Position numbers and translations under genes: made by a program | Notes under the pieces: generated by a model | Told to the model about the DNA's origin: nothing | Databases searched by the model: none | What the model saw: the letters and a program-made list of their open reading frames with translations, nothing else | DNA from: a virus | Taxonomy: Duplodnaviria > Heunggongvirae > Uroviricota > Caudoviricetes | Reading direction: 5' to 3' (one strand) | IMG/VR virus record: IMGVR_UViG_3300010885_065725 | DNA length: 27,458 nucleotides | In this document: positions 234 to 16,589 of the stretch, piece by piece | Layout of the letters: each line of letters starts with the position of its first letter | Numbering within the stretch: the stretch's first letter is position 1

Positions 234-665
234 ATGGGATTCGACCATAATGAACGTGAATATTTTGATGGCTGGGTTCCTAGTGATATGTTAGAAATTA
301 CGTTCGAACAAGAAAATGATTTTTTGAAGATAAAGGAATCTCTTACCAGGATTGGTGTAGGATCATATAAGGACAACTCCCTTATTCAGTCATGTCATAT
401 TCTACATAAGAAAGGTAAATATTATCTTATGCAGTTTAAAGAATTATTCTGCTTGGACGGAAGAGATACTGATATCACAGTAGATGATATCGCAAGAAGA
501 AATACTATTGCTCTGTTGTTACAAGAATGGGGAATGTTGAAAATAGTAGATATGCAAAAGGTAGAATTACGAACTAATCTATCAAGAATAAAAATTGTAC
601 CATTTAAAGAAAAATCAAATTATAATTTGATCAGTAAATATACAATTGGAACAAAATATAAATGA
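234..665 (+). CDS. regA: Translational repressor RegA
   Basis: DFLKIKESLTRIG, QSCHILHKKGKYYLMQFKELF, RRNTIALLLQEWG. Start moved to ATG 234, which follows GAGGT at 222-226. Confidence 0.95.
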   Translation: MGFDHNEREYFDGWVPSDMLEITFEQENDFLKIKESLTRIGVGSYKDNSLIQSCHILHKKGKYYLMQFKELFCLDGRDTDITVDDIARRNTIALLLQEWGMLKIVDMQKVELRTNLSRIKIVPFKEKSNYNLISKYTIGTKYK

Positions 666-1412: not shown

Positions 1413-1823
1413 ATGAAAGATTTAAATGAATATCAAGAATTTGTAGAATTCACTATTTCTAAACCATCTAGTCATTTTGGTGTTTTGTCCCATAGATTAT
1501 GTGAACTAGAAGAAAGTGGTGGGTTATTGGGAGTAAAGATTCCGGAACTCATGACTTCTGCATTTGGATTGACAGCAGAAGCTGGAGAATACACTGAAGT
1601 TGTGAAAAAAATTGTTTTCCAAGGCAAACCATTGAATGATGAAAATATCTTCCATATGAAGCGAGAATTGGGCGATATTTGTTGGTATCTTGCTGTTGCA
1701 TGTTCTGCACTAAATGTCTCCTTAGACGAAGTTTTTCAGATGAATTTTGATAAACTTAAGGCAAGATATCCAGAAGGTTTTACAGTAGAAAAATCTGAAA
1801 ATAGAAAAGATGGTGATGTGTGA
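1413..1823 (+). CDS. mazG: MazG-like nucleotide pyrophosphohydrolase
   Basis: GLTAEAGEYTEVVKK, KRELGDICWY, NFDKLKARYP. GAGGA at 1403-1407 favours ATG 1413. Confidence 0.85.
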   Translation: MKDLNEYQEFVEFTISKPSSHFGVLSHRLCELEESGGLLGVKIPELMTSAFGLTAEAGEYTEVVKKIVFQGKPLNDENIFHMKRELGDICWYLAVACSALNVSLDEVFQMNFDKLKARYPEGFTVEKSENRKDGDV

Positions 1824-2779
1824 GTAAAAAAATATCAGCATCAACAAAAAATACTGTCTCTTCTAATGGCAGTCTGATGGAAAGAATGATGAAGGCAAGT
1901 ACAATAGAATCTTCTGATGTATTGTCCGAATCTAAATTTTTTACTAAAGCAGACATGATTTCTACTTCTATTCCTGCAATAAATGTTGCACTATCCGGAA
2001 AATTGGATGGTGGGTTTGTGCCTGGGTTGACATTGTTTTGTGGTCCTTCGAAACATTTTAAAACAAGTTTTTCTTTGGTGCTTGCGAAAGCATATATGGA
2101 AAAATATGCAGAATCAGTTTTACTATTTTACGATTCTGAATTCGGGACACCACAAGATTATTTTAAATCATTTGGTATCGATACCAAAAGAGTATTGCAT
2201 ACTCCTATTACCAATATCGAAGAATTAAAATTTGATATTATGCAACAATTAAAAGAAATTGATCGAGGATCAAGAGTAATTATTGTCATTGATTCTATTG
2301 GAAATCTTGCATCAAAAAAAGAATTTGATGATGCAATGGACGGTAAATCTGTTGCCGATATGTCAAGAGCAAAGGCATTGAAAGGTTTGTTCAGAATGGT
2401 AACTCCACATCTTACCATGAAAGATATTCCTATGATTGCAATTAATCATACATATCAGACCCAAGAATTATATTCTAAGGCAGTAGTGTCTGGTGGGTGT
2501 TTAATATCAGGAACAAGAATTAAAATGTTTGATGATTCTTTAAAAAATATTGAAGATATACAAGTAGGTGATTTAGTTATCACATTAGATGGTCCAAAGG
2601 TAGTGACGCATTCTTGGAATCCAGATACTTTAGAAGATGGTGAACCTGAATGTTATAAAATTACATTTGAGGATGGTTATGAAGTAATTTGCTCAGATGA
2701 ACATCCATTTCTTATAAATGAAAAATTTGTGTATGCTAAGGAGCTTTGTATTGGGGATGAGATAACCACAATTAAGTGA
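1820..2779 (+). CDS. uvsX: UvsX recombinase N-extein (226 aa) fused to split-intein N-half
   Basis: P-loop GPSKHFKT, YDSEFG, IDSIGNLASKKE, ADMSRAK; homology stops at VVSGG and CLISGT begins. Confidence 0.95.
   Translation: MSKKISASTKNTVSSNGSLMERMMKASTIESSDVLSESKFFTKADMISTSIPAINVALSGKLDGGFVPGLTLFCGPSKHFKTSFSLVLAKAYMEKYAESVLLFYDSEFGTPQDYFKSFGIDTKRVLHTPITNIEELKFDIMQQLKEIDRGSRVIIVIDSIGNLASKKEFDDAMDGKSVADMSRAKALKGLFRMVTPHLTMKDIPMIAINHTYQTQELYSKAVVSGGCLISGTRIKMFDDSLKNIEDIQVGDLVITLDGPKVVTHSWNPDTLEDGEPECYKITFEDGYEVICSDEHPFLINEKFVYAKELCIGDEITTIK
2498..2776 (+). mobile_element. Split intein N-fragment in UvsX (93 aa)
   Basis: Block A CLISGTRI, IEDIQVGDLV, block B CSDEHPFL, ends AKELCIGDEITTIK*. Confidence 0.93.
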
Positions 2780-2854
2780 ATTTTCAATTCTTATATATGG
2801 ATGAATGGTGCTATTGTCAGAAAAAAATTAAAACTATTAAATAATGGGGTATAA

Positions 2855-2959
2855 ATGAAAATTACAAATATTGAAAAAGTTGGTAAACAAAAAGTTTATG
2901 ATATTACAGTGGCAGATAATCACCAATATGTGCTTGAAAATGGAGTAGTAACTCATAAT
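2855..2959 (+). mobile_element. Split intein C-fragment in UvsX (35 aa), Thr+1
   Basis: MKITNIEKVGKQKVYDITVADNHQYVLENGVVTHN|T: block F VYDITV and block G HN. Confidence 0.93.
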
Positions 2960-3400
2960 ACAGGAATATATTATTCTGCCAGCAATATTTTTATTATCGG
3001 CAGACAACAAGAAAAAGAAGATACAGAAATTGTTGGATATAATTTTATTATAAATGTAGAAAAATCTAGATTTGTAAAAGAAAAATCTAAAATTCCTGTT
3101 TCTGTTCTATATGACGGAGGAATTTCTACATGGTCTGGATTATTGGAAATGGCACTGGATTCTGGTCATGTTGTCAAACCTTCTAATGGATGGTACAGCA
3201 AGGTAGATGTTGCTACAGGTGTAATAGAAGATAAAAGATATAGAATAAAGGATACAAACACAAAAGACTTCTGGATGCCTATTTTGATCGACAAGACATT
3301 CAGAGATTGGACAGAGAATACATATAAATTAATTTCTGCAGAGATTATTTCTAATAGTGAACTAGAAAAAGTTGCAGAAGAAATGGCAAAGACATCTTGA
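2855..3400 (+). CDS. uvsX: Split-intein C-half fused to UvsX C-extein (146 aa)
   Basis: After THN the sequence resumes UvsX: TGIYYSASNIFIIGRQQEK, VEKSRFVKEKSKIP, KPSNGWY. GGGGT SD at 2846-2850. Confidence 0.93.
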   Translation: MKITNIEKVGKQKVYDITVADNHQYVLENGVVTHNTGIYYSASNIFIIGRQQEKEDTEIVGYNFIINVEKSRFVKEKSKIPVSVLYDGGISTWSGLLEMALDSGHVVKPSNGWYSKVDVATGVIEDKRYRIKDTNTKDFWMPILIDKTFRDWTENTYKLISAEIISNSELEKVAEEMAKTS

Positions 3401-9375: not shown

Positions 9376-10221
9376 ATGAAAAATCAAATTGAAGTAAAAA
9401 TGATAGAAGATTCTTTATGTGGAAATGGCTATGGTCCTAGACTAATTACTTTACAATTGAAATATCACAGATATATTCATAGTGAATTCATGACACACAG
9501 AGTATTCAGCAGATCAGCAAGCAGTTCCAGAGCAGTTCCAATAAAGAAAATTATTAAACAAGTATGGGATGATCCTGCAATGCCAGTACATTGGGGTGCT
9601 AATATTTCTGGAATGCAAGCAAAAACTGAATTGACAGGATGGAAATTATTTCAAGCCAAGTTAATTTGGAAATTATCTTCTAAAGTTGCATGTGTTTTGG
9701 CTCTTGCATTATATAATATCGGATTGCATAAACAAATTGGTAATAGAATATTAGAACCGTTTTCTTTTATCAATGTTATTGTTACTGCAACAGAATTCGA
9801 TAATTTTTTTGAATTGAGAATTCATCCTGATGCACAACCAGAGATACATGAATTAGCAAAACTGATGAAAAGTTGTATTGACAATTCTGTTCCTAGAAAA
9901 ATTTCAAATTACAATTTCGGAAGAGAGCAGGATTACTGGCACTTGCCATACATATCAGAAACAGAAAGAAAAATCTATTCTCTTGAAGTTTTATTGAGAT
10001 GTTCTGTTGCAAGATGTGCAAGAGTGTCTTTTAATAATCACGATGGTACTTCCCCTTCTATAACCAAAGACATAGAATTACACGATATTTTGGTAGGTTC
10101 TGTTCCTTTGCATGCTTCACCTGCAGAACATCAGGCAACACCTGCCAGTTCTCTGCATTCGTTCCATAAAAACTTTAGAGGATGGAATCAATACAGGACA
10201 GAATTAGAAGAAAATTTTTAA
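9376..10221 (+). CDS. thyX: Flavin-dependent thymidylate synthase
   Basis: HSEFMTHRVFSRSASSSRA, LRIHPDAQPEI, HASPAEHQA. Confidence 0.92.
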   Translation: MKNQIEVKMIEDSLCGNGYGPRLITLQLKYHRYIHSEFMTHRVFSRSASSSRAVPIKKIIKQVWDDPAMPVHWGANISGMQAKTELTGWKLFQAKLIWKLSSKVACVLALALYNIGLHKQIGNRILEPFSFINVIVTATEFDNFFELRIHPDAQPEIHELAKLMKSCIDNSVPRKISNYNFGREQDYWHLPYISETERKIYSLEVLLRCSVARCARVSFNNHDGTSPSITKDIELHDILVGSVPLHASPAEHQATPASSLHSFHKNFRGWNQYRTELEENF

Positions 10222-10245
10222 AACACAAAAGAAAAGAGGAATACA

Positions 10246-11238
10246 ATGATCAGGATATTATCTCCGAAATCCGAATATATTACAGACTATCCTATTGCTA
10301 TTGAGTTTGCCAAACAGCAAGCAGAAATCATATGGTTTCCTGATGAGATAGAAGTTGAAAAAGACCTACACGACCTTAAAACAAACTGCACTAAAGCAGA
10401 ATACCATGGAGTTATATCTACACTAAAGCTGTTTACTCTTTATGAATTAAATGTTGGTAATGACTATTGGCAAAATTATGTATCTAAGGTGTTCCCACGA
10501 CCCGATATTCAGAGAATGGCAGCTACCTTTGCATTTATGGAAATTGGCGTACATGCACCCTTCTACAACAAGATTAATGAGGTTCTAGGACTGGATAATG
10601 AAGAATTTTATAATTCTTACAAAGAAGACGAAGTTCTTGCCAATAGAATAGCATGGCTTGGAAAAAGAACAGAAAAGAGGGATACTGTTTATAATATCTT
10701 AAAATCTGTTGGTATTTTTAGTATGATTGAAGGAGCTATTCTGTACAGCTCTTTTGCCTTTCTTAAACATTTTAATAGCGCAGGTAAGAATAGTTGTATT
10801 AATATTAATGCAGGGATTAATTTTTCTGCAATAGATGAGAACCTCCACTCTACTGCTGGAGCTTGGTTGTTTAGAACGCTGCTACAAGAAGCAAAAGATG
10901 ATGGTCAAGTCACATCTATTTTTCTTGAAGAATTAATTAGAGAACTAGAAGAGACTGCAAAAGTCATTCTCGAACATGAATCAATTATCATTGATAAGAT
11001 ATTCGAGAAAGGTTCAATTAAAGGGATTACAGCTAATCAGTTAATACATTTTGTTGGATCGAGATTAGATGTTTGTTTGGTTAATCTAGGATTTAAAGGT
11101 ATATTTAACCCTAAAAGAAATGTTATTGCAAAATGGTTTTATAAGGATGTAGAATCTACGGGAATCCTACATGATTTTTTTTCGAGCCAAGGAAGTTCTT
11201 ATACTAGATCTTGGAAAGAAAAATCATTTATTTGGTAA
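10246..11238 (+). CDS. nrdB: Ribonucleotide reductase class I beta subunit
   Basis: WFPDE, TLYE, EIGVHAPFY, IEGAILYSSF, DENLH. Confidence 0.95.
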   Translation: MIRILSPKSEYITDYPIAIEFAKQQAEIIWFPDEIEVEKDLHDLKTNCTKAEYHGVISTLKLFTLYELNVGNDYWQNYVSKVFPRPDIQRMAATFAFMEIGVHAPFYNKINEVLGLDNEEFYNSYKEDEVLANRIAWLGKRTEKRDTVYNILKSVGIFSMIEGAILYSSFAFLKHFNSAGKNSCININAGINFSAIDENLHSTAGAWLFRTLLQEAKDDGQVTSIFLEELIRELEETAKVILEHESIIIDKIFEKGSIKGITANQLIHFVGSRLDVCLVNLGFKGIFNPKRNVIAKWFYKDVESTGILHDFFSSQGSSYTRSWKEKSFIW

Positions 11239-11244
11239 ATACTA

Positions 11245-11892
11245 TTGATATACTTATATTTAAAAACTCATAAAAATACCGGACTAAAATATTTAGGGAT
11301 GACAATTAAAGATCCTTTTAAATATAGAGGTTCTGGAATATATTGGGTTAAACATATTAAAAAATATGGAAATAATGTTGATACTGAAATTTTGTCTATA
11401 TGTAATACTAATGCAGAAATAAAAGAATTAGGTTCATATTATTCAGAATTATGGGATATAGTTAATTCTCCACAATTTGCAAATTTAGTTCCCGAATCAG
11501 GAAATGATAGTAGCGGTATGCTTAATAAATTTCATAGCAAGGAAAGTAAAGAGAAAACAAGACAATCACTATTGGGACACAAGGTATCTGATGAAACTAA
11601 ATATAAAATTAGAACAACTAGAGAGAATAACCATATAGAACCATGGAACAAAGGTAAATATCAAGAATATACCATGTTTGATGAAGAGTATAAAAAAGAA
11701 TTATCTATAAAATATACTGGGGAAAATAATCCATTTTATGGAAAACAACATACAGATGATTTTAAAAATACACAAAGAGAAACCCAAAAACTACAAATAA
11801 AATGCCCATATTGTGATAAAATGGGGGCAATGAGAATTATGAAAAGGTGGCATTTTGATAATTGTAAACACAAAATTTTAGAGAATATATGA
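11245..11892 (+). CDS. Free-standing GIY-YIG homing endonuclease (Seg-like, NUMOD3-type tail)
   Basis: IYLYLKTHKNTGLKYLG, YRGSG, HSKESKEK, PWNKGK, GENNPFYGKQH, CPYC..KRWHFDNCK. Start codon uncertain. Confidence 0.88.
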   Translation: MIYLYLKTHKNTGLKYLGMTIKDPFKYRGSGIYWVKHIKKYGNNVDTEILSICNTNAEIKELGSYYSELWDIVNSPQFANLVPESGNDSSGMLNKFHSKESKEKTRQSLLGHKVSDETKYKIRTTRENNHIEPWNKGKYQEYTMFDEEYKKELSIKYTGENNPFYGKQHTDDFKNTQRETQKLQIKCPYCDKMGAMRIMKRWHFDNCKHKILENI

Positions 11893-11893
11893 T

Positions 11894-12481
11894 ATGTTGA
11901 ATGAATTAAATATTTACGAAGAACTTGGCGAAGAACGCAAAGCACTACAAGAACAAGGATTACTTCCTGAATGGGTGACTACTGCTGCATGGCAGATGCT
12001 CAAAGAAAATTATCTTTCTCCAAAGTATCCTGATTTAAAATGTGTATATACTAGAATAGCAAAACATGCTGCAAAATATATGGCAACAGATCCTGAAGTA
12101 TGGGAAGACAAATTTTTTGAAATCCTCTGGAAAGGGTTTCTTGCTGCATCTACTCCAGTGCTTTCTAATATGGGAACTGGAGTAGGATGTCCTGTAAGCT
12201 GCTTTGTTGCTGGAACAATGGTTAATACAAAAGAAGGTCAAAAGCCTATAGAGAAGCTAACTATAGGCGATATGGTATTGACACATACAAATTCTTATAA
12301 AGAAGTTATTGATATAATGAATAGAGTATCAGATGATCTTTATGAATTAGAATTTAATGGAGAAGTTTTTGTTGTAACAGGTAATCATTTAGTTCTAACG
12401 AAAGAGGGTGGGTGGGTTCCGGTGGATGAACTCGATCCAAAAGTCCACAATATTGTTCAAATTTTGGATGATCTTTTGTGA
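11894..12481 (+). CDS. nrdA: NrdA N-extein (102 aa, no ATP cone) fused to split-intein N-half
   Basis: LWKGFLAASTPVLSNMG, GCPVS|CFVAGT. Confidence 0.93.
   Translation: MLNELNIYEELGEERKALQEQGLLPEWVTTAAWQMLKENYLSPKYPDLKCVYTRIAKHAAKYMATDPEVWEDKFFEILWKGFLAASTPVLSNMGTGVGCPVSCFVAGTMVNTKEGQKPIEKLTIGDMVLTHTNSYKEVIDIMNRVSDDLYELEFNGEVFVVTGNHLVLTKEGGWVPVDELDPKVHNIVQILDDLL
12200..12478 (+). mobile_element. Split intein N-fragment in NrdA (93 aa)
   Basis: CFVAGTMV, IEKLTIGDMVLTH, block B VTGNHLVL. Confidence 0.93.
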
Positions 12482-13328
12482 TCATATAAAACCCCAATTG
12501 CGAGAATGTCATACCTTTAACTTTATTAGATATTATAGAAGTTCCTTTGGTGTGATGACTATTTATAACTGTGTTTTCTTTTTCAGAAAACCTACAAAGA
12601 GGTTTATGAACAGTAGAAAACACTCCAATTGGTGTTACGTATAATCGGAATGATTTTAATGATTTTCTAAAGTTTATATCTGCTTTTTTGATTTTATTTG
12701 ATAAAGAAATCTTTGAAGACACTTCTTTTGACAATGGTATTCCAGTTCTAGATTTATTTAATGCTATAAAACGTTCTGATGCTAATTTATCTGCATTGGT
12801 ATAAGCATCAGACGCTCTTATTTCTTTACATTGTTCTATGTTTTCGGGGTTTGAATAATATTCAAACTTTTGTTTTGAAAGTAAATCTTTAGTCGATTGT
12901 TTTACATTTGGAGTTCCATCTTCGAGATAACCTCTTGTAAATACTCCTTTTTTGTTAATTTTAACTTGATCTGATGCTAATTTTAATAACTTTAAAGAGT
13001 CTTTTTTATCAAAACTTCTTTGATGTATTATTCTAGAAACTGCTTCCCACATACCCCAAGTGTTATAACTTTTAGCTAAAAGATAATGGGATAAAATATG
13101 TTGTCGTCTAGTTAGTTTTATACTATTCCAAGGAAATATTTTAAGGTTGGTATATTCTGGAAAAAGATCTTTTGCTTTAGGACAAATGTGGTGATTTTCT
13201 TTATAATCACTTTTTGATAAGTTTTTATTAGCCAATGTGCATAATAAAATAAATTTATAATATCTATTAAGATAATGAGGATTATGTGGTTTACTTGAAA
13301 GTGTGATATAAATATAGTTGCTGGTCAT
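12354..13328 (-). CDS. HNH homing endonuclease (Mob-like), antisense within split nrdA
   Basis: ENHHICPK...NSIKLTRRQHILSHYLLAKSY HNH core; basic C-terminal region. Confidence 0.88.
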   Translation of the reverse strand: MTSNYIYITLSSKPHNPHYLNRYYKFILLCTLANKNLSKSDYKENHHICPKAKDLFPEYTNLKIFPWNSIKLTRRQHILSHYLLAKSYNTWGMWEAVSRIIHQRSFDKKDSLKLLKLASDQVKINKKGVFTRGYLEDGTPNVKQSTKDLLSKQKFEYYSNPENIEQCKEIRASDAYTNADKLASERFIALNKSRTGIPLSKEVSSKISLSNKIKKADINFRKSLKSFRLYVTPIGVFSTVHKPLCRFSEKENTVINSHHTKGTSIISNKVKGMTFSQLGFYMITKDHPKFEQYCGLLDRVHPPEPTHPLSLELNDYLLQQKLLH

Positions 13329-13361
13329 AATAGTCTCTTAGATTGTTTTAGAATGATTAGA

Positions 13362-13424
13362 GTTAGTGGGCTCCTACACCGCGACTAACGCCTTTTATAC
13401 ATATATGTACATAATGTATTTATA
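13362..13424 (-). promoter_or_regulatory. Late promoter plus GC-rich hairpin in HNH gene leader
   Basis: - strand TATAAATA (13424-13417), then GTTAGT-CGC-GGT-GTAGGA-GCC-C-ACTAAC (13389-13362). Confidence 0.6.
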
Positions 13425-13452
13425 TAAATTTGAATTTCAAGGATAAAATATA

Positions 13453-13560
13453 ATGAATTTTAAGGTCATAAAAATTAATAAAAAAGATACTGTATATGAC
13501 ATTACAGTAGATACGGATCATTCCTTTACAATTGGAGATTCGAAAGTAGTGGTACATAAT
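13453..13560 (+). mobile_element. Split intein C-fragment in NrdA (36 aa), Cys+1
   Basis: MNFKVIKINKKDTVYDITVDTDHSFTIGDSKVVVHN|C. Confidence 0.93.
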
Positions 13561-15456
13561 TGCAGCGGAAATTACGTTAAAGATTCTGTCTATGCATTTT
13601 ATGATTCTCAGAAGGAAGCTGCAGTACTTTCTAAGAATGGATTTGGCACTTCCGGATATTTGGGTTCTATTAGATCGCGTGGATCAAAGATTGCTGGAAT
13701 GAAAGGTTCTGCATCTGGTGTGCTTCCGGTATTTAAAGATTTTGTTCAAATGTCAAGAGATATTTCTCAAGGCTCTCAACGCAGAGGGGCATGGGCAGGA
13801 TATATAGAAATTGAACATAATGATTTCTTTGAGTTAATTAATTTTATTCATAAGAATCCGGACGATGCAAATATCGGTTGGAATATTTCTGATAAATTTA
13901 TTGCTAGACTAGATGCAGGAGATAAAGATGCCATTGATCGCTATCAGAAAGCTTTAAAATTAAAGATGATAACTGGCAAAGGATACTTCAATTTTATTGA
14001 TAGAGTCAATCGTCAGAACCCTAAGATGTATGTTGACAGAGGATTGACTGTTAAGGCAAGCAATCTTTGTTTCTCTGGTGATACAATGGTTGCTGTTGCT
14101 GATGGTAGAAATGCAGTCTCAATAGCACAATTGGCAGATGAATCTGACCACGGTACATATAAATTTCCTGTTTATTCTTCTAGATGGAATGATACTAAAA
14201 AAATATGGGTTAATGAAGTTAAAGAGGCAATAGCATTTAAAACTGGAGAACATCAAACAATAAAATTAACATTATCTGATGGCTCTACCTTTAAGTGTAC
14301 TCCTGATCATAGAATTGCAATGTCTGATGGTAATTATATTGAGGCATCTTTATCATTAGGAAAACATTTACAACCATTTTATACTATATCAGAGAAAAAA
14401 GAACTATATTCAGTACAAACATTAAGTGTAATTGCTATAGAGTATGGTGAAATAGAATCTGTGTATGATCTTACTGTTGAGGATAATCACAATTTTAACA
14501 TAATTACATCAACTCAAGATGATGCGTATCTTCAGTGTTCTGGTATATTAGTGCATAATTGTACAGAGATAGCATTATTTTCTGATGATGATCATACATT
14601 TTCTTGTGTATTATCTTCTATGAATGCCTCTAAGTATGATGAATGGAAAGATACAGATGCTGTTTTTGTTGCGACATGTTTTCTTGATTGCGTCAATCAG
14701 GATCTGATTGAAATTGGTAAGACTGTTGCAGGTATGGAAAAGGTAGTACGATTTGCCGAGAAAAGCCGAGCATTGGGTTTAGGTTTGCTTGGGTTTCATA
14801 CGTATCTACAAGAACATATGATTGCATTTGAATCTTTTGAAGCACATCTAAAGAATGTAGAGATATTCAAACATCTGGATGCAGAATCATTGAGGGCATC
14901 ACAATGGATGGCATATCAATATGGCGAACCTTTTTGGTGTAAAGGATATGGACTAAGAAATACCCATAGAATTGCAATTGCTCCAAATCTTTCTTCTGCA
15001 TTGATATGTGGATCTGTTTCTCAAGGTATTGAACCAATATATAAAAATGCATATGTACAAAATACTGCTGCAGGAAAGGTAGATAGAGTTAATCCTACTT
15101 TACTGAAAATTATGAAAGATCGAGACGTATATAGTGAAGAAACTATCACAGATATTATTAAGAATTCTGGATCAGTACAGCATGTATCTTGGCTATCGGA
15201 CGAAGAAAAACCAGTATTCAAGACTGCATTTGAGATTGATCAGATGGTAATTATTAAACTTGCTTCTGTTAGGCAGAGATATATAGATCAGGCACAGAGT
15301 ATTAATCTATTCTTTTCTGCAGATGAGTCAGAAGAATATATTTCTCAAGTACACAAATATGCATTTAAGGATCAATATATAAAAAGTTTATATTATATTA
15401 GATCTGAGACTGGAGTAAATGTTAATAAATCTGAGTGCACTAGCTGTCACGGATAA
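13453..15456 (+). CDS. nrdA: Split-intein C-half + NrdA middle extein + cis mini-intein + NrdA C-extein
   Basis: HN|CSG, GFGTS, QGSQRRGAWAGY, SNL|intein|CTEI, FSCVLSSMN, AIAPNLSS, SLYYIRS, terminal CTSCHG. AAGGA SD. Confidence 0.95.
   Translation: MNFKVIKINKKDTVYDITVDTDHSFTIGDSKVVVHNCSGNYVKDSVYAFYDSQKEAAVLSKNGFGTSGYLGSIRSRGSKIAGMKGSASGVLPVFKDFVQMSRDISQGSQRRGAWAGYIEIEHNDFFELINFIHKNPDDANIGWNISDKFIARLDAGDKDAIDRYQKALKLKMITGKGYFNFIDRVNRQNPKMYVDRGLTVKASNLCFSGDTMVAVADGRNAVSIAQLADESDHGTYKFPVYSSRWNDTKKIWVNEVKEAIAFKTGEHQTIKLTLSDGSTFKCTPDHRIAMSDGNYIEASLSLGKHLQPFYTISEKKELYSVQTLSVIAIEYGEIESVYDLTVEDNHNFNIITSTQDDAYLQCSGILVHNCTEIALFSDDDHTFSCVLSSMNASKYDEWKDTDAVFVATCFLDCVNQDLIEIGKTVAGMEKVVRFAEKSRALGLGLLGFHTYLQEHMIAFESFEAHLKNVEIFKHLDAESLRASQWMAYQYGEPFWCKGYGLRNTHRIAIAPNLSSALICGSVSQGIEPIYKNAYVQNTAAGKVDRVNPTLLKIMKDRDVYSEETITDIIKNSGSVQHVSWLSDEEKPVFKTAFEIDQMVIIKLASVRQRYIDQAQSINLFFSADESEEYISQVHKYAFKDQYIKSLYYIRSETGVNVNKSECTSCHG
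14068..14559 (+). mobile_element. Contiguous mini-intein (164 aa, no endonuclease domain) in NrdA
   Basis: CFSGDTMV, CTPDHRI, VYDLTVEDNHNF, ILVHN|C. Confidence 0.95.
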
Positions 15457-15464
15457 AATTCTTC

Positions 15465-15507
15465 TTGACAGATGACATACTTCTGCCATATAATATATAT
15501 GGCAGAA
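15465..15507 (+). promoter_or_regulatory. Sigma70 promoter with 12 bp inverted repeat centred on -10 (may double as nrdA terminator)
   Basis: TTGACA(15465)-18-TATAAT(15489); TTCTGCCATATA-ATA-TATATGGCAGAA. Confidence 0.7.
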
Positions 15508-15531
15508 TTTTAAATACATAAGGAATATATA

Positions 15532-15888
15532 ATGAGTTACGATATTGATTTACGTGATCCAGTCACAAAAGAAACAATATTTTTTGATGAATCACACCAA
15601 ATTAGAGGTGGTTCATATCCGATTGGTGGAACAAATAAGGCAGAATTTAATATCACTTATAATTATGCTCCAGTTTATTATAAATTAATGGGAGAAAAGG
15701 GCATTCGCACAATATATGGTATGTCCGGTGCAGAAAGTATTCCTGTGATAGAATCTACAATTTCACAATTAAAAAATGATATTTCTGATGATTATTGGGA
15801 ATCTACAGAAGGGAATGCAAAGAGGGCATTGTATGGTTTGCTTGCCTTTGCAAAAATGAGACCTGACGGAATATGGGATGGAGATTGA
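15532..15888 (+). CDS. Conserved phage hypothetical protein
   Basis: AAGGA SD; NITYNY..GAES..YW..TEGNAKRAL..PDGIWDGD. Confidence 0.8.
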   Translation: MSYDIDLRDPVTKETIFFDESHQIRGGSYPIGGTNKAEFNITYNYAPVYYKLMGEKGIRTIYGMSGAESIPVIESTISQLKNDISDDYWESTEGNAKRALYGLLAFAKMRPDGIWDGD

Positions 15889-16589
15889 TGGCAACGAAAC
15901 ATAAAAAAAGTATTGTTACTATTGTATATGGTGACGAATTGTCATATGACACAAATAAAACTTATTCTATGACAGAATTTATTTCTGCATTGAATTATTA
16001 TAATTACACTTGTAATCATGAAAATATAAAGAATTTTGTACTTGAATATGCAGATATTTATCGTACAGCAGAAGAATATGGTATTTTGGCAGATCTGAAT
16101 AAGACATCATTCAAGGCAACTACAGGAGCAATGTGTAGAATGCATAAATTGAATTTTCCTTTTTCTGAAAAACAATTGATACAGATAAAGGATCAAATAG
16201 ATCAATTATTGGAACTTGCAAAACTTAAGGCAGGTAAACCTGTTTCTACAACAACAATTTCTAAGAAAAAGGTAGATGTTCTTGATACTGTAATATTAGA
16301 TATTGATATTCATATCGATTATTGTGTGACTAAAAGTAAATTTACAAAATTTAAAGCAGAAGAATATATTACAAAACACAAAATAAATTATGTTGTTTCG
16401 CAACAGGTCGCAGAATATTATAGAGGCAGAATAGATACTATTGGTGATAAGGAAGGATATAATGGAAAAATGTATGAACAATATCTAAATTATTTGAATG
16501 AAATTGTCAATACATTTTCTACTTTCAAAAAGAAAAGAAAAGAACGCACAAAAAAAGTTGTTGTTGTTGCTGTTGATCCTTCTAAATAA
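15888..16589 (+). CDS. Hypothetical protein
   Basis: Long ORF; TGATG overlap favours start at 15888. Confidence 0.7.
   Translation: MATKHKKSIVTIVYGDELSYDTNKTYSMTEFISALNYYNYTCNHENIKNFVLEYADIYRTAEEYGILADLNKTSFKATTGAMCRMHKLNFPFSEKQLIQIKDQIDQLLELAKLKAGKPVSTTTISKKKVDVLDTVILDIDIHIDYCVTKSKFTKFKAEEYITKHKINYVVSQQVAEYYRGRIDTIGDKEGYNGKMYEQYLNYLNEIVNTFSTFKKKRKERTKKVVVVAVDPSK

Follow-up and report, generated by a model that had tools for sequence, protein, structure and literature searches.

Two described kinds of interrupted gene come closest to the locus reported here. Fractured genes were defined from gp41-1, NrdJ-1, IMPDH-1 and NrdA-1 to -7 (Dassa 2009, PMC2677866). In these, one strand carries all three coding regions, the endonucleases belong to the GIY-YIG or Vsr-like types, and the 3' end of the endonuclease gene overlaps the 5' end of the C-terminal intein half (IntC) by 6-69 bp; in NrdA the break falls only directly before the thiyl cysteine, and HNH nucleases were predicted as possible gene fracturers too (PMC2677866). 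The second kind is the nrdA-a/mobE/nrdA-b arrangement of Aeromonas phage Aeh1, in which the split NrdA works without ligation (PMC3045599). A preliminary description of the DNA analysed here had remarked that the two are known separately. This DNA is a stretch of 27,458 nucleotides (nt) from a virus of the Caudoviricetes (IMG/VR record IMGVR_UViG_3300010885_065725), hereafter the window, in which nrdA, the gene for the alpha subunit of ribonucleotide reductase (RNR), comes in pieces. Our results make it quite likely that this nrdA houses a composite selfish element: a split intein flanking an antisense gene of the Mob-type HNH kind, which shares ~41 codons with the N-terminal intein half (IntN).

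As seen from the list of open reading frames (ORFs) and their translations, nrdA is broken at 11894-15456 across two plus-strand ORFs with a minus-strand ORF between them. The three ORFs are separately translated, a start codon and a ribosome-binding site being present for every one of them. The parts of the broken gene are the following:

11894-12481, plus strand: nrdA-N ORF, 195 amino acids (aa), with the junction GCPVS/CFVAGT and then a stop (ORF; Pfam Ribonuc_red_lgN and Hint_2).
11894-12199, plus strand: nrdA N-extein, 102 aa, with the C-terminal end GCPVS (PDB alignment, relatives).
12200-12481, plus strand: IntN, 93 aa and stop, with Cys1 and block B T60-G-N-H63 (Pfam Hint_2, PDB matches, 14-locus alignment).
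12354-12481, both strands: convergent dual-coding overlap, 128 nt, in which IntN codons 52-93 (plus) are endonuclease codons ~283-324 (minus).
12354-13328, minus strand: probable free-standing Mob-type HNH homing endonuclease gene, 324 aa (PHROG 655/12434, BFVD fold matches).
13453-15456, plus strand: nrdA-C ORF, 667 aa (ORF; Pfam Ribonuc_red_lgC and Intein_splicing).
13453-13560, plus strand: IntC, 36 aa, with a Lys-rich N-terminus and the end VVVHN, then CSGNY (ORF, 15-locus alignment).
13561-14067, plus strand: nrdA middle extein, 169 aa, first residue Cys equivalent to E. coli C225, end KASNL (alignments).
14068-14559, plus strand: predicted cis-splicing mini-intein, 164 aa (CFSGDT...TPDH...ILVHN), residues 206-369 of nrdA-C (Pfam Intein_splicing).
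14560-15456, plus strand: nrdA C-extein, 298 aa and stop, first residue Cys equivalent to E. coli C439 (CTEIAL) (alignments).

The preliminary description had given the same ORFs, strands, overall span and junctions, which our ORF check reproduced to the base. It had also read the locus as a split intein of 93 + 36 aa around an opposite-strand HNH gene, followed by a 164-aa cis intein at SNL/C. All three elements held up: Cys1, Thr-x-x-His, His-Asn and the +1 Cys of the split intein are present, the cis intein is recognised by Pfam and by comparison with a homologue (L009), and the HNH gene is supported by PHROG matches, by BLASTP against a related locus (L046) and by BFVD folds.

The splicing residues of the split intein are strongly conserved. 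IntN Cys1 and block B (T60-G-N-H63) were invariant in an alignment of 14 loci, and H35, N36 and the +1 residue C37 of IntC in an alignment of 15. The sequence features of class 1 split inteins were found, namely Cys1, Thr-x-x-His, the penultimate His, the terminal Asn, the +1 Cys and a colinear host. IntN has a net charge of about -9, and the N-terminus of IntC is Lys-rich. The PDB matches of IntN are the gp41-1 intein (weak, E 7.5e-4) and a bacterial intein-like (BIL) domain. When IntN and IntC were modelled as a complex, the prediction scored 0.65 relative to 0.01 for the best control, passing a mark that 58 of 80 solved complexes had attained, as had 2 of 110 mismatched pairs; these counts are a rough guide, because own alignments were used. 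Contacts agreed at 92% or more between runs, and the partner had a predicted local distance difference test (pLDDT) value of at least 74. This result may partly mirror likeness to solved split inteins, because complexes such as that of gp41-1 have already been solved. We infer that the enzyme would need one trans- and one cis-splicing event, a reading that is strongly backed because the splicing residues are invariant in 14-15 loci and the two intein halves are predicted to form a complex.

Alternatively, the NrdA fragments might assemble non-covalently, with the intein halves acting as docking domains only and without any splicing, as NrdA-a and NrdA-b of Aeh1 do. The split NrdA of Aeh1 does work without ligation (PMC3045599) and IntN and IntC are indeed predicted to bind; yet all splicing residues are invariant across 14-15 diverged loci, the 129-aa intein would sit on the redox Cys (the C225 equivalent) inside the active site, and the break is placed exactly at the site where contiguous, necessarily splicing inteins occur. 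We therefore regard purely non-covalent assembly as improbable. There was also no sign of joining at the RNA level, since an Rfam scan of positions 10000-16000 (E up to 1) matched no RNA family, introns of groups I and II included.

Protein trans-splicing followed or accompanied by cis-splicing would yield a recognisable enzyme. The preliminary description had predicted a 569-aa product with both +1 cysteines at catalytic positions and had proposed an alignment with intein-less relatives, and each of these points was confirmed. The exteins that remain after removal of both inteins add up as 102 + 169 + 298 = 569 aa. In a MAFFT alignment with E. coli NrdA, the +1 cysteine of the split intein (spliced residue 103) falls opposite C225 and that of the cis intein (spliced residue 272) opposite C439; N437, E441, C462, Y730/Y731 and the equivalents of the C-terminal CxxC are kept as well. 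The best PDB matches to the NrdA pieces are the class Id alpha structures 6DQX (1.4e-97) and 6DQW, whose alignments stop at PVS/C and resume at HN/CSGNY, with a second gap from ASNL/C up to residue 370 (CTEIAL). An IMG/VR scan with the first ORF as query returned 42 loci. In 41 of these the first site is empty: the extein pieces abut in frame without an intervening base, colinear with those of the window, with zero residues gained or lost. The empty site is therefore precisely defined. The exteins of the window are ~70-88% identical to those of these 41 intact relatives. The spliced product, 569 aa without an ATP-cone, would be a class Id-like class I RNR alpha subunit, its partner NrdB being known from a Pfam match alone. 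We also observed a third NrdA insertion site, located ~140 residues into the C-terminal extein and occupied by inserts of 0.4-1 kb in several loci (L020 4378-5337, L023, L037-L039).

One could also regard this nrdA as a decaying gene overrun by selfish elements that no longer yields a working enzyme. Four selfish elements are found in one operon, and degenerating, intein-ridden nrdA genes have been discussed for Campylobacter phages (PMC3653736). Such decay is very hard to reconcile with the fact that every ORF is intact, that C225, N437, C439, E441 and C462 are all kept along with the YY pair and the C-terminal Cys pair, that the exteins remain 70-88% identical to those of intact relatives, and that the arrangement persists across deep divergence. 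We consider it highly improbable.

The second intein of the window presents all splicing blocks and is matched by Pfam (Intein_splicing). A homologue inserted at the same site (L009) is a 333-aa intein with HNH_3, and its flanks are 78% and 64% identical to those of the window's intein; a long form of the cis intein is also present in a close relative of the whole arrangement (contig P0003). Judging from these comparisons, the 164-aa cis intein is therefore a mini-intein, a deletion derivative of an HNH_3-bearing intein that has lost its endonuclease domain.

For the protein encoded on the opposite strand, two PHROG families gave matches, 655 ('homing endonuclease', 6.7e-15) and 12434 ('HNH endonuclease', 4.6e-9). 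Its core, HH-I-x-P...N...LT-x-R-x-H-I-x-x-H-x-LL, aligns with the same-strand Mob-like HNH protein of L046 (BLASTP E 4e-7), and residues E44, H46, H47, N68, H77 and H81 show little or no variation (57 sequences for H46/H47, N68 and H77/H81). In the AlphaFold model, residues 1-112 have a pLDDT of 91, with a strand at 44-47, a strand at 69-72 and a helix at 74-88 holding the core residues. Fold matches in BFVD were to phage MobE, HNHc-domain and homing endonuclease proteins, with E values of 8e-11 to 3.2e-3 and template modelling (TM) scores of 0.55-0.87; they include MobE of Campylobacter virus IBB35 (E 1.9e-5, TM 0.70), a T2 homing endonuclease (TM 0.70) and T4 MobB (E 3.2e-3). Among the Swiss-Prot models of the AlphaFold database (AFDB), the sole clear match was the C. 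moewusii psbA intron-1 ORF P09753, which we take to be the I-CmoeI gene. I-CmoeI is an H-N-H homing endonuclease from a C. moewusii psbA intron ORF, described in a source that names neither the intron nor the accession (PMC2761285). These results suggest that the antisense gene encodes a probable Mob-type HNH homing endonuclease. A tblastn comparison of the endonuclease with 50,697 deposited phage genomes gave matches confined to the N-terminal ~90 aa, and the full protein was found in none of them.

The arrangement is recurrent. Endonuclease homologues formed 26 full-length clusters in a large protein collection, and we looked up eight loci at 84-40% identity. All eight have the endonuclease on the strand opposite to nrdA, and seven of them place it between an ORF for NrdA-N with a Hint domain and an ORF for NrdA-C; the eighth (L044) ends at a contig edge and holds the antisense of IntN. 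Another IMG/VR scan added at least 14 further loci with IntN, an antisense endonuclease and IntC, so that the cassette is present in at least 20 independent metagenomic phage contigs, deeply divergent nrdA hosts included. The hosts of L048-L062 belong to a different NrdA lineage, with exteins 27-42% and NrdB 25-30% identical to those of the window and with the +1 context CFL/CYL, not CSG. Their cassettes are 55-60% (IntN), ~50% (IntC) and ~40% (endonuclease) identical to that of the window. Because the cassette is more conserved than its hosts, its sequences indicate that it spreads horizontally. None of the 41 closest NrdA relatives carries it.

Two loci, L101 (4250-4870) and L102, have kept both intein halves and have lost the endonuclease gene save for its dual-coded tail; their spacer still carries TATAAATA. 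They plausibly represent an end state, which resembles the endonuclease-less split intein of uvsX in the window. Other loci combine related elements in different ways. In L046 (1084-5450), nrdA is in three pieces, with an antisense-endonuclease split intein at the C225 site and a second split intein at the thiyl Cys; the latter is associated with a Mob-like HNH gene (278 aa) on the same strand, whose overlap with the start of IntC is 14 nt. In L017 (5980-9028) nrdA is fractured at the thiyl Cys in the canonical same-strand manner, the nuclease being a Mob-like HNH protein of 288 aa whose gene overlaps the IntC ORF by 56 nt; a nuclease of this type was not seen by Dassa 2009 in fractured genes (PMC2677866).

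The overlap between IntN and the endonuclease gene is equally recurrent. IntN residues 52-93, block B included, read backwards as the endonuclease tail HPPEPTHPLSLELNDYLLQQKLLH (~41 codons), and in each of the 16 loci measured the endonuclease ORF enters the 3' end of the IntN ORF by 119-161 nt. This tail ranks with the best-conserved stretches of the endonuclease, inside whose C-terminal domain it is modelled with a pLDDT of 85-90. The antisense frame is open in all loci, for a chance expectation of 2-14% per locus when IntN codons were resampled synonymously with the protein held fixed. Third-position diversity of IntN is 0.585 outside the overlap and falls to 0.32 within it.

The spacer between the endonuclease gene and IntC carries several putative expression signals:

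13362-13396, no strand assigned: conserved spacer hairpin (4-locus alignment, RNA folds).
13417-13424, minus strand: perfect T4-type late promoter TATAAATA, 88 nt 5' of the endonuclease ATG (motif match).
13423-13430, plus strand: TATAAATT, a 7/8 late-promoter-like motif (motif match).
13439-13443, plus strand: Shine-Dalgarno AAGGA 5' of the IntC start codon (sequence).

The late promoter TATAAATA is directed toward the endonuclease in 10 of 15 homologous spacers. The AAGGA lies ~9 nt 5' of the IntC ATG, and Shine-Dalgarno-like purine-rich runs precede both IntC and the endonuclease in nearly all loci. The hairpin has a GTTAGT...ACTAAC stem and an invariant CGCGG/CCC core, with two compensatory stem changes among four aligned loci of the window's subgroup; it folds weakly (z -0.4 to -2.8). 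It is followed on the plus strand by a T run, as in a terminator for nrdA sense transcripts, and lies within the 5' untranslated region of the endonuclease gene. Contigs of a lake metatranscriptome (X5) that are identical to the window cover 13111-13261, 13361-13567 and 14404-14594; they carry no information on strand or transcript ends and are possibly derived from DNA.

Several observations weigh against our interpretation of the locus as a composite element, or against parts of it. Splicing, RNR activity and nuclease activity are all functions that we infer. No credible Pfam family was found for the antisense ORF and its 26 homologues (PF01844 at E 0.38 in 1 of 26), PDB sequence-profile searches with whole-protein and N-domain alignments gave chance matches only, and neither Foldseek against the PDB (whole and N-domain models) nor VIA-align against 48,161 chains returned anything above background. 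The small beta-beta-alpha-Me core was probably swamped by helices in the PDB fold searches. Because the Pfam and PDB searches came back empty, the HNH assignment is kept at probable, and it draws on the PHROGs, the motif residues and the predicted folds. As for expression, a terminator-like hairpin stands 5' of nrdA-C on the sense strand, and the best late-promoter match toward nrdA-C in the window reaches 7/8; nrdA-C might be made either from a promoter of its own or by transcripts that read through the antisense endonuclease gene. Regarding the overlap, the fall in IntN synonymous diversity is moderate, and contiguous inteins at the same NrdA site share the segment VTGNHL..T..GWVRVD; the contiguous intein of L130, the one whose DNA was read, has no long antisense ORF.

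It follows from this shared segment that much of the amino-acid conservation of the tail mirrors IntN. The overlap might thus be a passive run-on of the endonuclease ORF to the first stop, its conservation reflecting selection on IntN, with no functional or genetic significance. IntN is the more constrained partner, codon positions 1 and 2 being less diverse than position 3 throughout; its segment is conserved in contiguous inteins without an antisense gene, and the tail frame is still open in L101, where the endonuclease gene has been deleted. However, the frame is open in every locus relative to the 2-14% obtained under synonymous resampling, third-position diversity of IntN is roughly halved within the overlap, and the tail is modelled as part of a folded C-terminal domain. 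We consider a passive run-on rather unlikely. In terms of sequence diversity, IntN is the dominant constraint on the overlap, and the endonuclease frame is probably under selection too.

The conserved antisense overlap could also be a functional device, either because the tail is essential to the DNA-recognition domain or because the two transcripts form a reciprocal RNA switch. We offer this idea tentatively and judge it unlikely. If the former were true, the nuclease and the intein would be genetically welded into one inseparable homing unit. If the latter were true, the late endonuclease transcript would be antisense to the 3' end of nrdA-N and the early nrd transcripts antisense to the endonuclease, so that the switch would keep the nuclease silent at the early stage and end RNR synthesis at the late one.

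On our interpretation of the locus as a composite element, its parts would act as follows. NrdA-N-IntN and IntC-NrdA-C would associate through their intein halves, and trans-splicing would join Ser102 to Cys103, the equivalent of E. coli C225. The mini-intein would splice in cis after or in parallel to this reaction, joining Leu271 to Cys272, the equivalent of the thiyl residue C439. The outcome would be an active cone-less class I alpha subunit of 569 aa working with the adjacent NrdB. The endonuclease would be driven mostly by its late promoter, and its antisense orientation would keep the nuclease out of the early/middle nrd transcript. It would nick or cut intein-free nrdA alleles of co-infecting phages, and repair would then copy IntN, the endonuclease gene and IntC as one unit; the shared codons would tie nuclease and intein together genetically.

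The surroundings of the locus constitute a T4-like replication and nucleotide-metabolism block with a split uvsX, a gp41-type helicase, thyX, nrdB, nrdA and a T4-type RNase H, in DNA of ~30% G+C. The features adjacent to nrdA are these:

10246-11238, plus strand: nrdB, RNR small subunit, 330 aa, the 5' partner gene (Pfam Ribonuc_red_sm E 4.8e-39).
11245-11892, plus strand: free-standing Seg-like GIY-YIG/NUMOD3 homing endonuclease gene (PHROG 314 E 3.2e-19, Pfam NUMOD3).
15481-15507, plus strand: intrinsic-terminator-like hairpin, 12 bp, directly 3' of nrdA-C (sequence).

The Seg-like gene separates nrdB from nrdA-N; most relatives have no insert at this position, and their nrdB and nrdA overlap there by 4 nt. 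With this gene counted, the selfish elements of the nrd operon number four. A perfect sigma-70 consensus (TTGACA, 18 nt, TATAAT) at 15465-15507 (plus strand) overlaps the terminator-like hairpin after the nrdA-C stop. The uvsX gene (1820-3400, plus strand) is also interrupted by a split intein, and its halves have no endonuclease between them. The intein halves of uvsX and nrdA are similar only weakly (34% over 29 aa and 44% over 27 aa).

The layout is not an assembly artefact, because it recurs in independent contigs and because identical contigs run across its joints. The preliminary description had raised this doubt, and a chimeric metagenomic contig would be conceivable in that the window comes from an uncultured freshwater phage and the support is at the level of contigs, not raw reads. 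Yet the same arrangement is found in independent contigs from ENA, JGI, NCBI, Logan and IMG/VR, and Logan contigs from two freshwater DNA runs cross the critical joints with 0 differences from the window, both at the IntN/endonuclease overlap and at the spacer/IntC region. Near-identical sequence is present in freshwater metagenomes. We attach next to no credence to a chimera.

These results would extend the fractured-gene model, in that the break in an intein could also come from a free-standing HNH nuclease gene on the opposite strand and could fall at a second catalytic site of NrdA. They suggest that such an antisense cassette can persist and spread as a unit. One NrdA site now offers a natural series of contiguous mini-inteins, LAGLIDADG-bearing inteins, split inteins with an antisense gene and split inteins from which the gene has been deleted, and the gene-breaking route to split inteins can be tested on this series. 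The antisense dual coding of ~40 codons, which joins an intein block to a nuclease domain, would represent an unusual example of gene overlap in which both partners are constrained together. The family is also a source of many diverged Cys1/Cys+1 split inteins of 93 + 36 aa. Because the intein halves of nrdA and uvsX resemble each other only weakly, the two pairs may be orthogonal and are candidate protein-ligation tools.

Contiguous inteins at the same NrdA site (P0153, P0163, P0164, P0188, P0191, P0216, P0217, P0232) are likewise inserted before the C225-equivalent Cys, and their N-terminal half is 39-46% identical to IntN. Unlike the intein of the window, they are single-chain mini-inteins of ~140 aa or inteins of ~345 aa with an in-frame LAGLIDADG-like domain. 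We considered whether the ~345-aa forms hide an antisense endonuclease and rejected this in L130, where the insert is an in-frame LAGLIDADG-like domain. The L130 intein (1837-2865) is a contiguous 343-aa intein in a class Ia-like host, with LAGLIDADG-like motifs that Pfam did not score; a second intein, bearing LAGLIDADG_3, is located at the thiyl site of the same NrdA. The gp41-1 split intein (PDB 6QAZ/6RIZ) resembles that of the window in size (88 + 37 versus 93 + 36 aa), in its similar split point, in Cys1 and in phage origin, whereas it lies in another host protein, is distant in sequence and is accompanied by a same-strand endonuclease gene.

The likeness to Aeh1 is that a late-regulated endonuclease gene of the Mob-type HNH kind interrupts the nrdA of a T4-like phage; in contrast to the window, Aeh1 has no intein, a same-strand endonuclease, non-covalently assembled halves and another break position in NrdA (PMC3045599). 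The likeness to the fractured genes of Dassa 2009 is closer: the host gene is broken in place with its original order and orientation, split-intein halves flank a free-standing endonuclease gene, the setting is phage or metagenomic, the endonuclease has a T4-late-type promoter, IntN is acidic and IntC is basic. The differences from these genes are that the endonuclease is encoded on the minus strand, as it is in every one of the 20-plus homologous loci, that its 3' end overlaps the 3' end of IntN (by 119-161 nt), that it is of the Mob-type HNH kind and not GIY-YIG or Vsr-like, and that the split intein occupies the C225-equivalent Cys while the thiyl site holds a cis mini-intein. We found no description of an opposite-strand endonuclease in a split-intein locus in the literature, in which subscription journals were thinly covered, so that nothing is proved by this absence. 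Multi-intein RNRs are already known, as are fractured genes. The cassette of this phage is further accompanied by a thiyl-site cis mini-intein and by a Seg-like gene between nrdB and nrdA. Relative to fractured genes and to Aeh1, the sequences thus point to a locus of an already known general kind that appears new in its strand, its nuclease type, its overlap partner and its insertion site.

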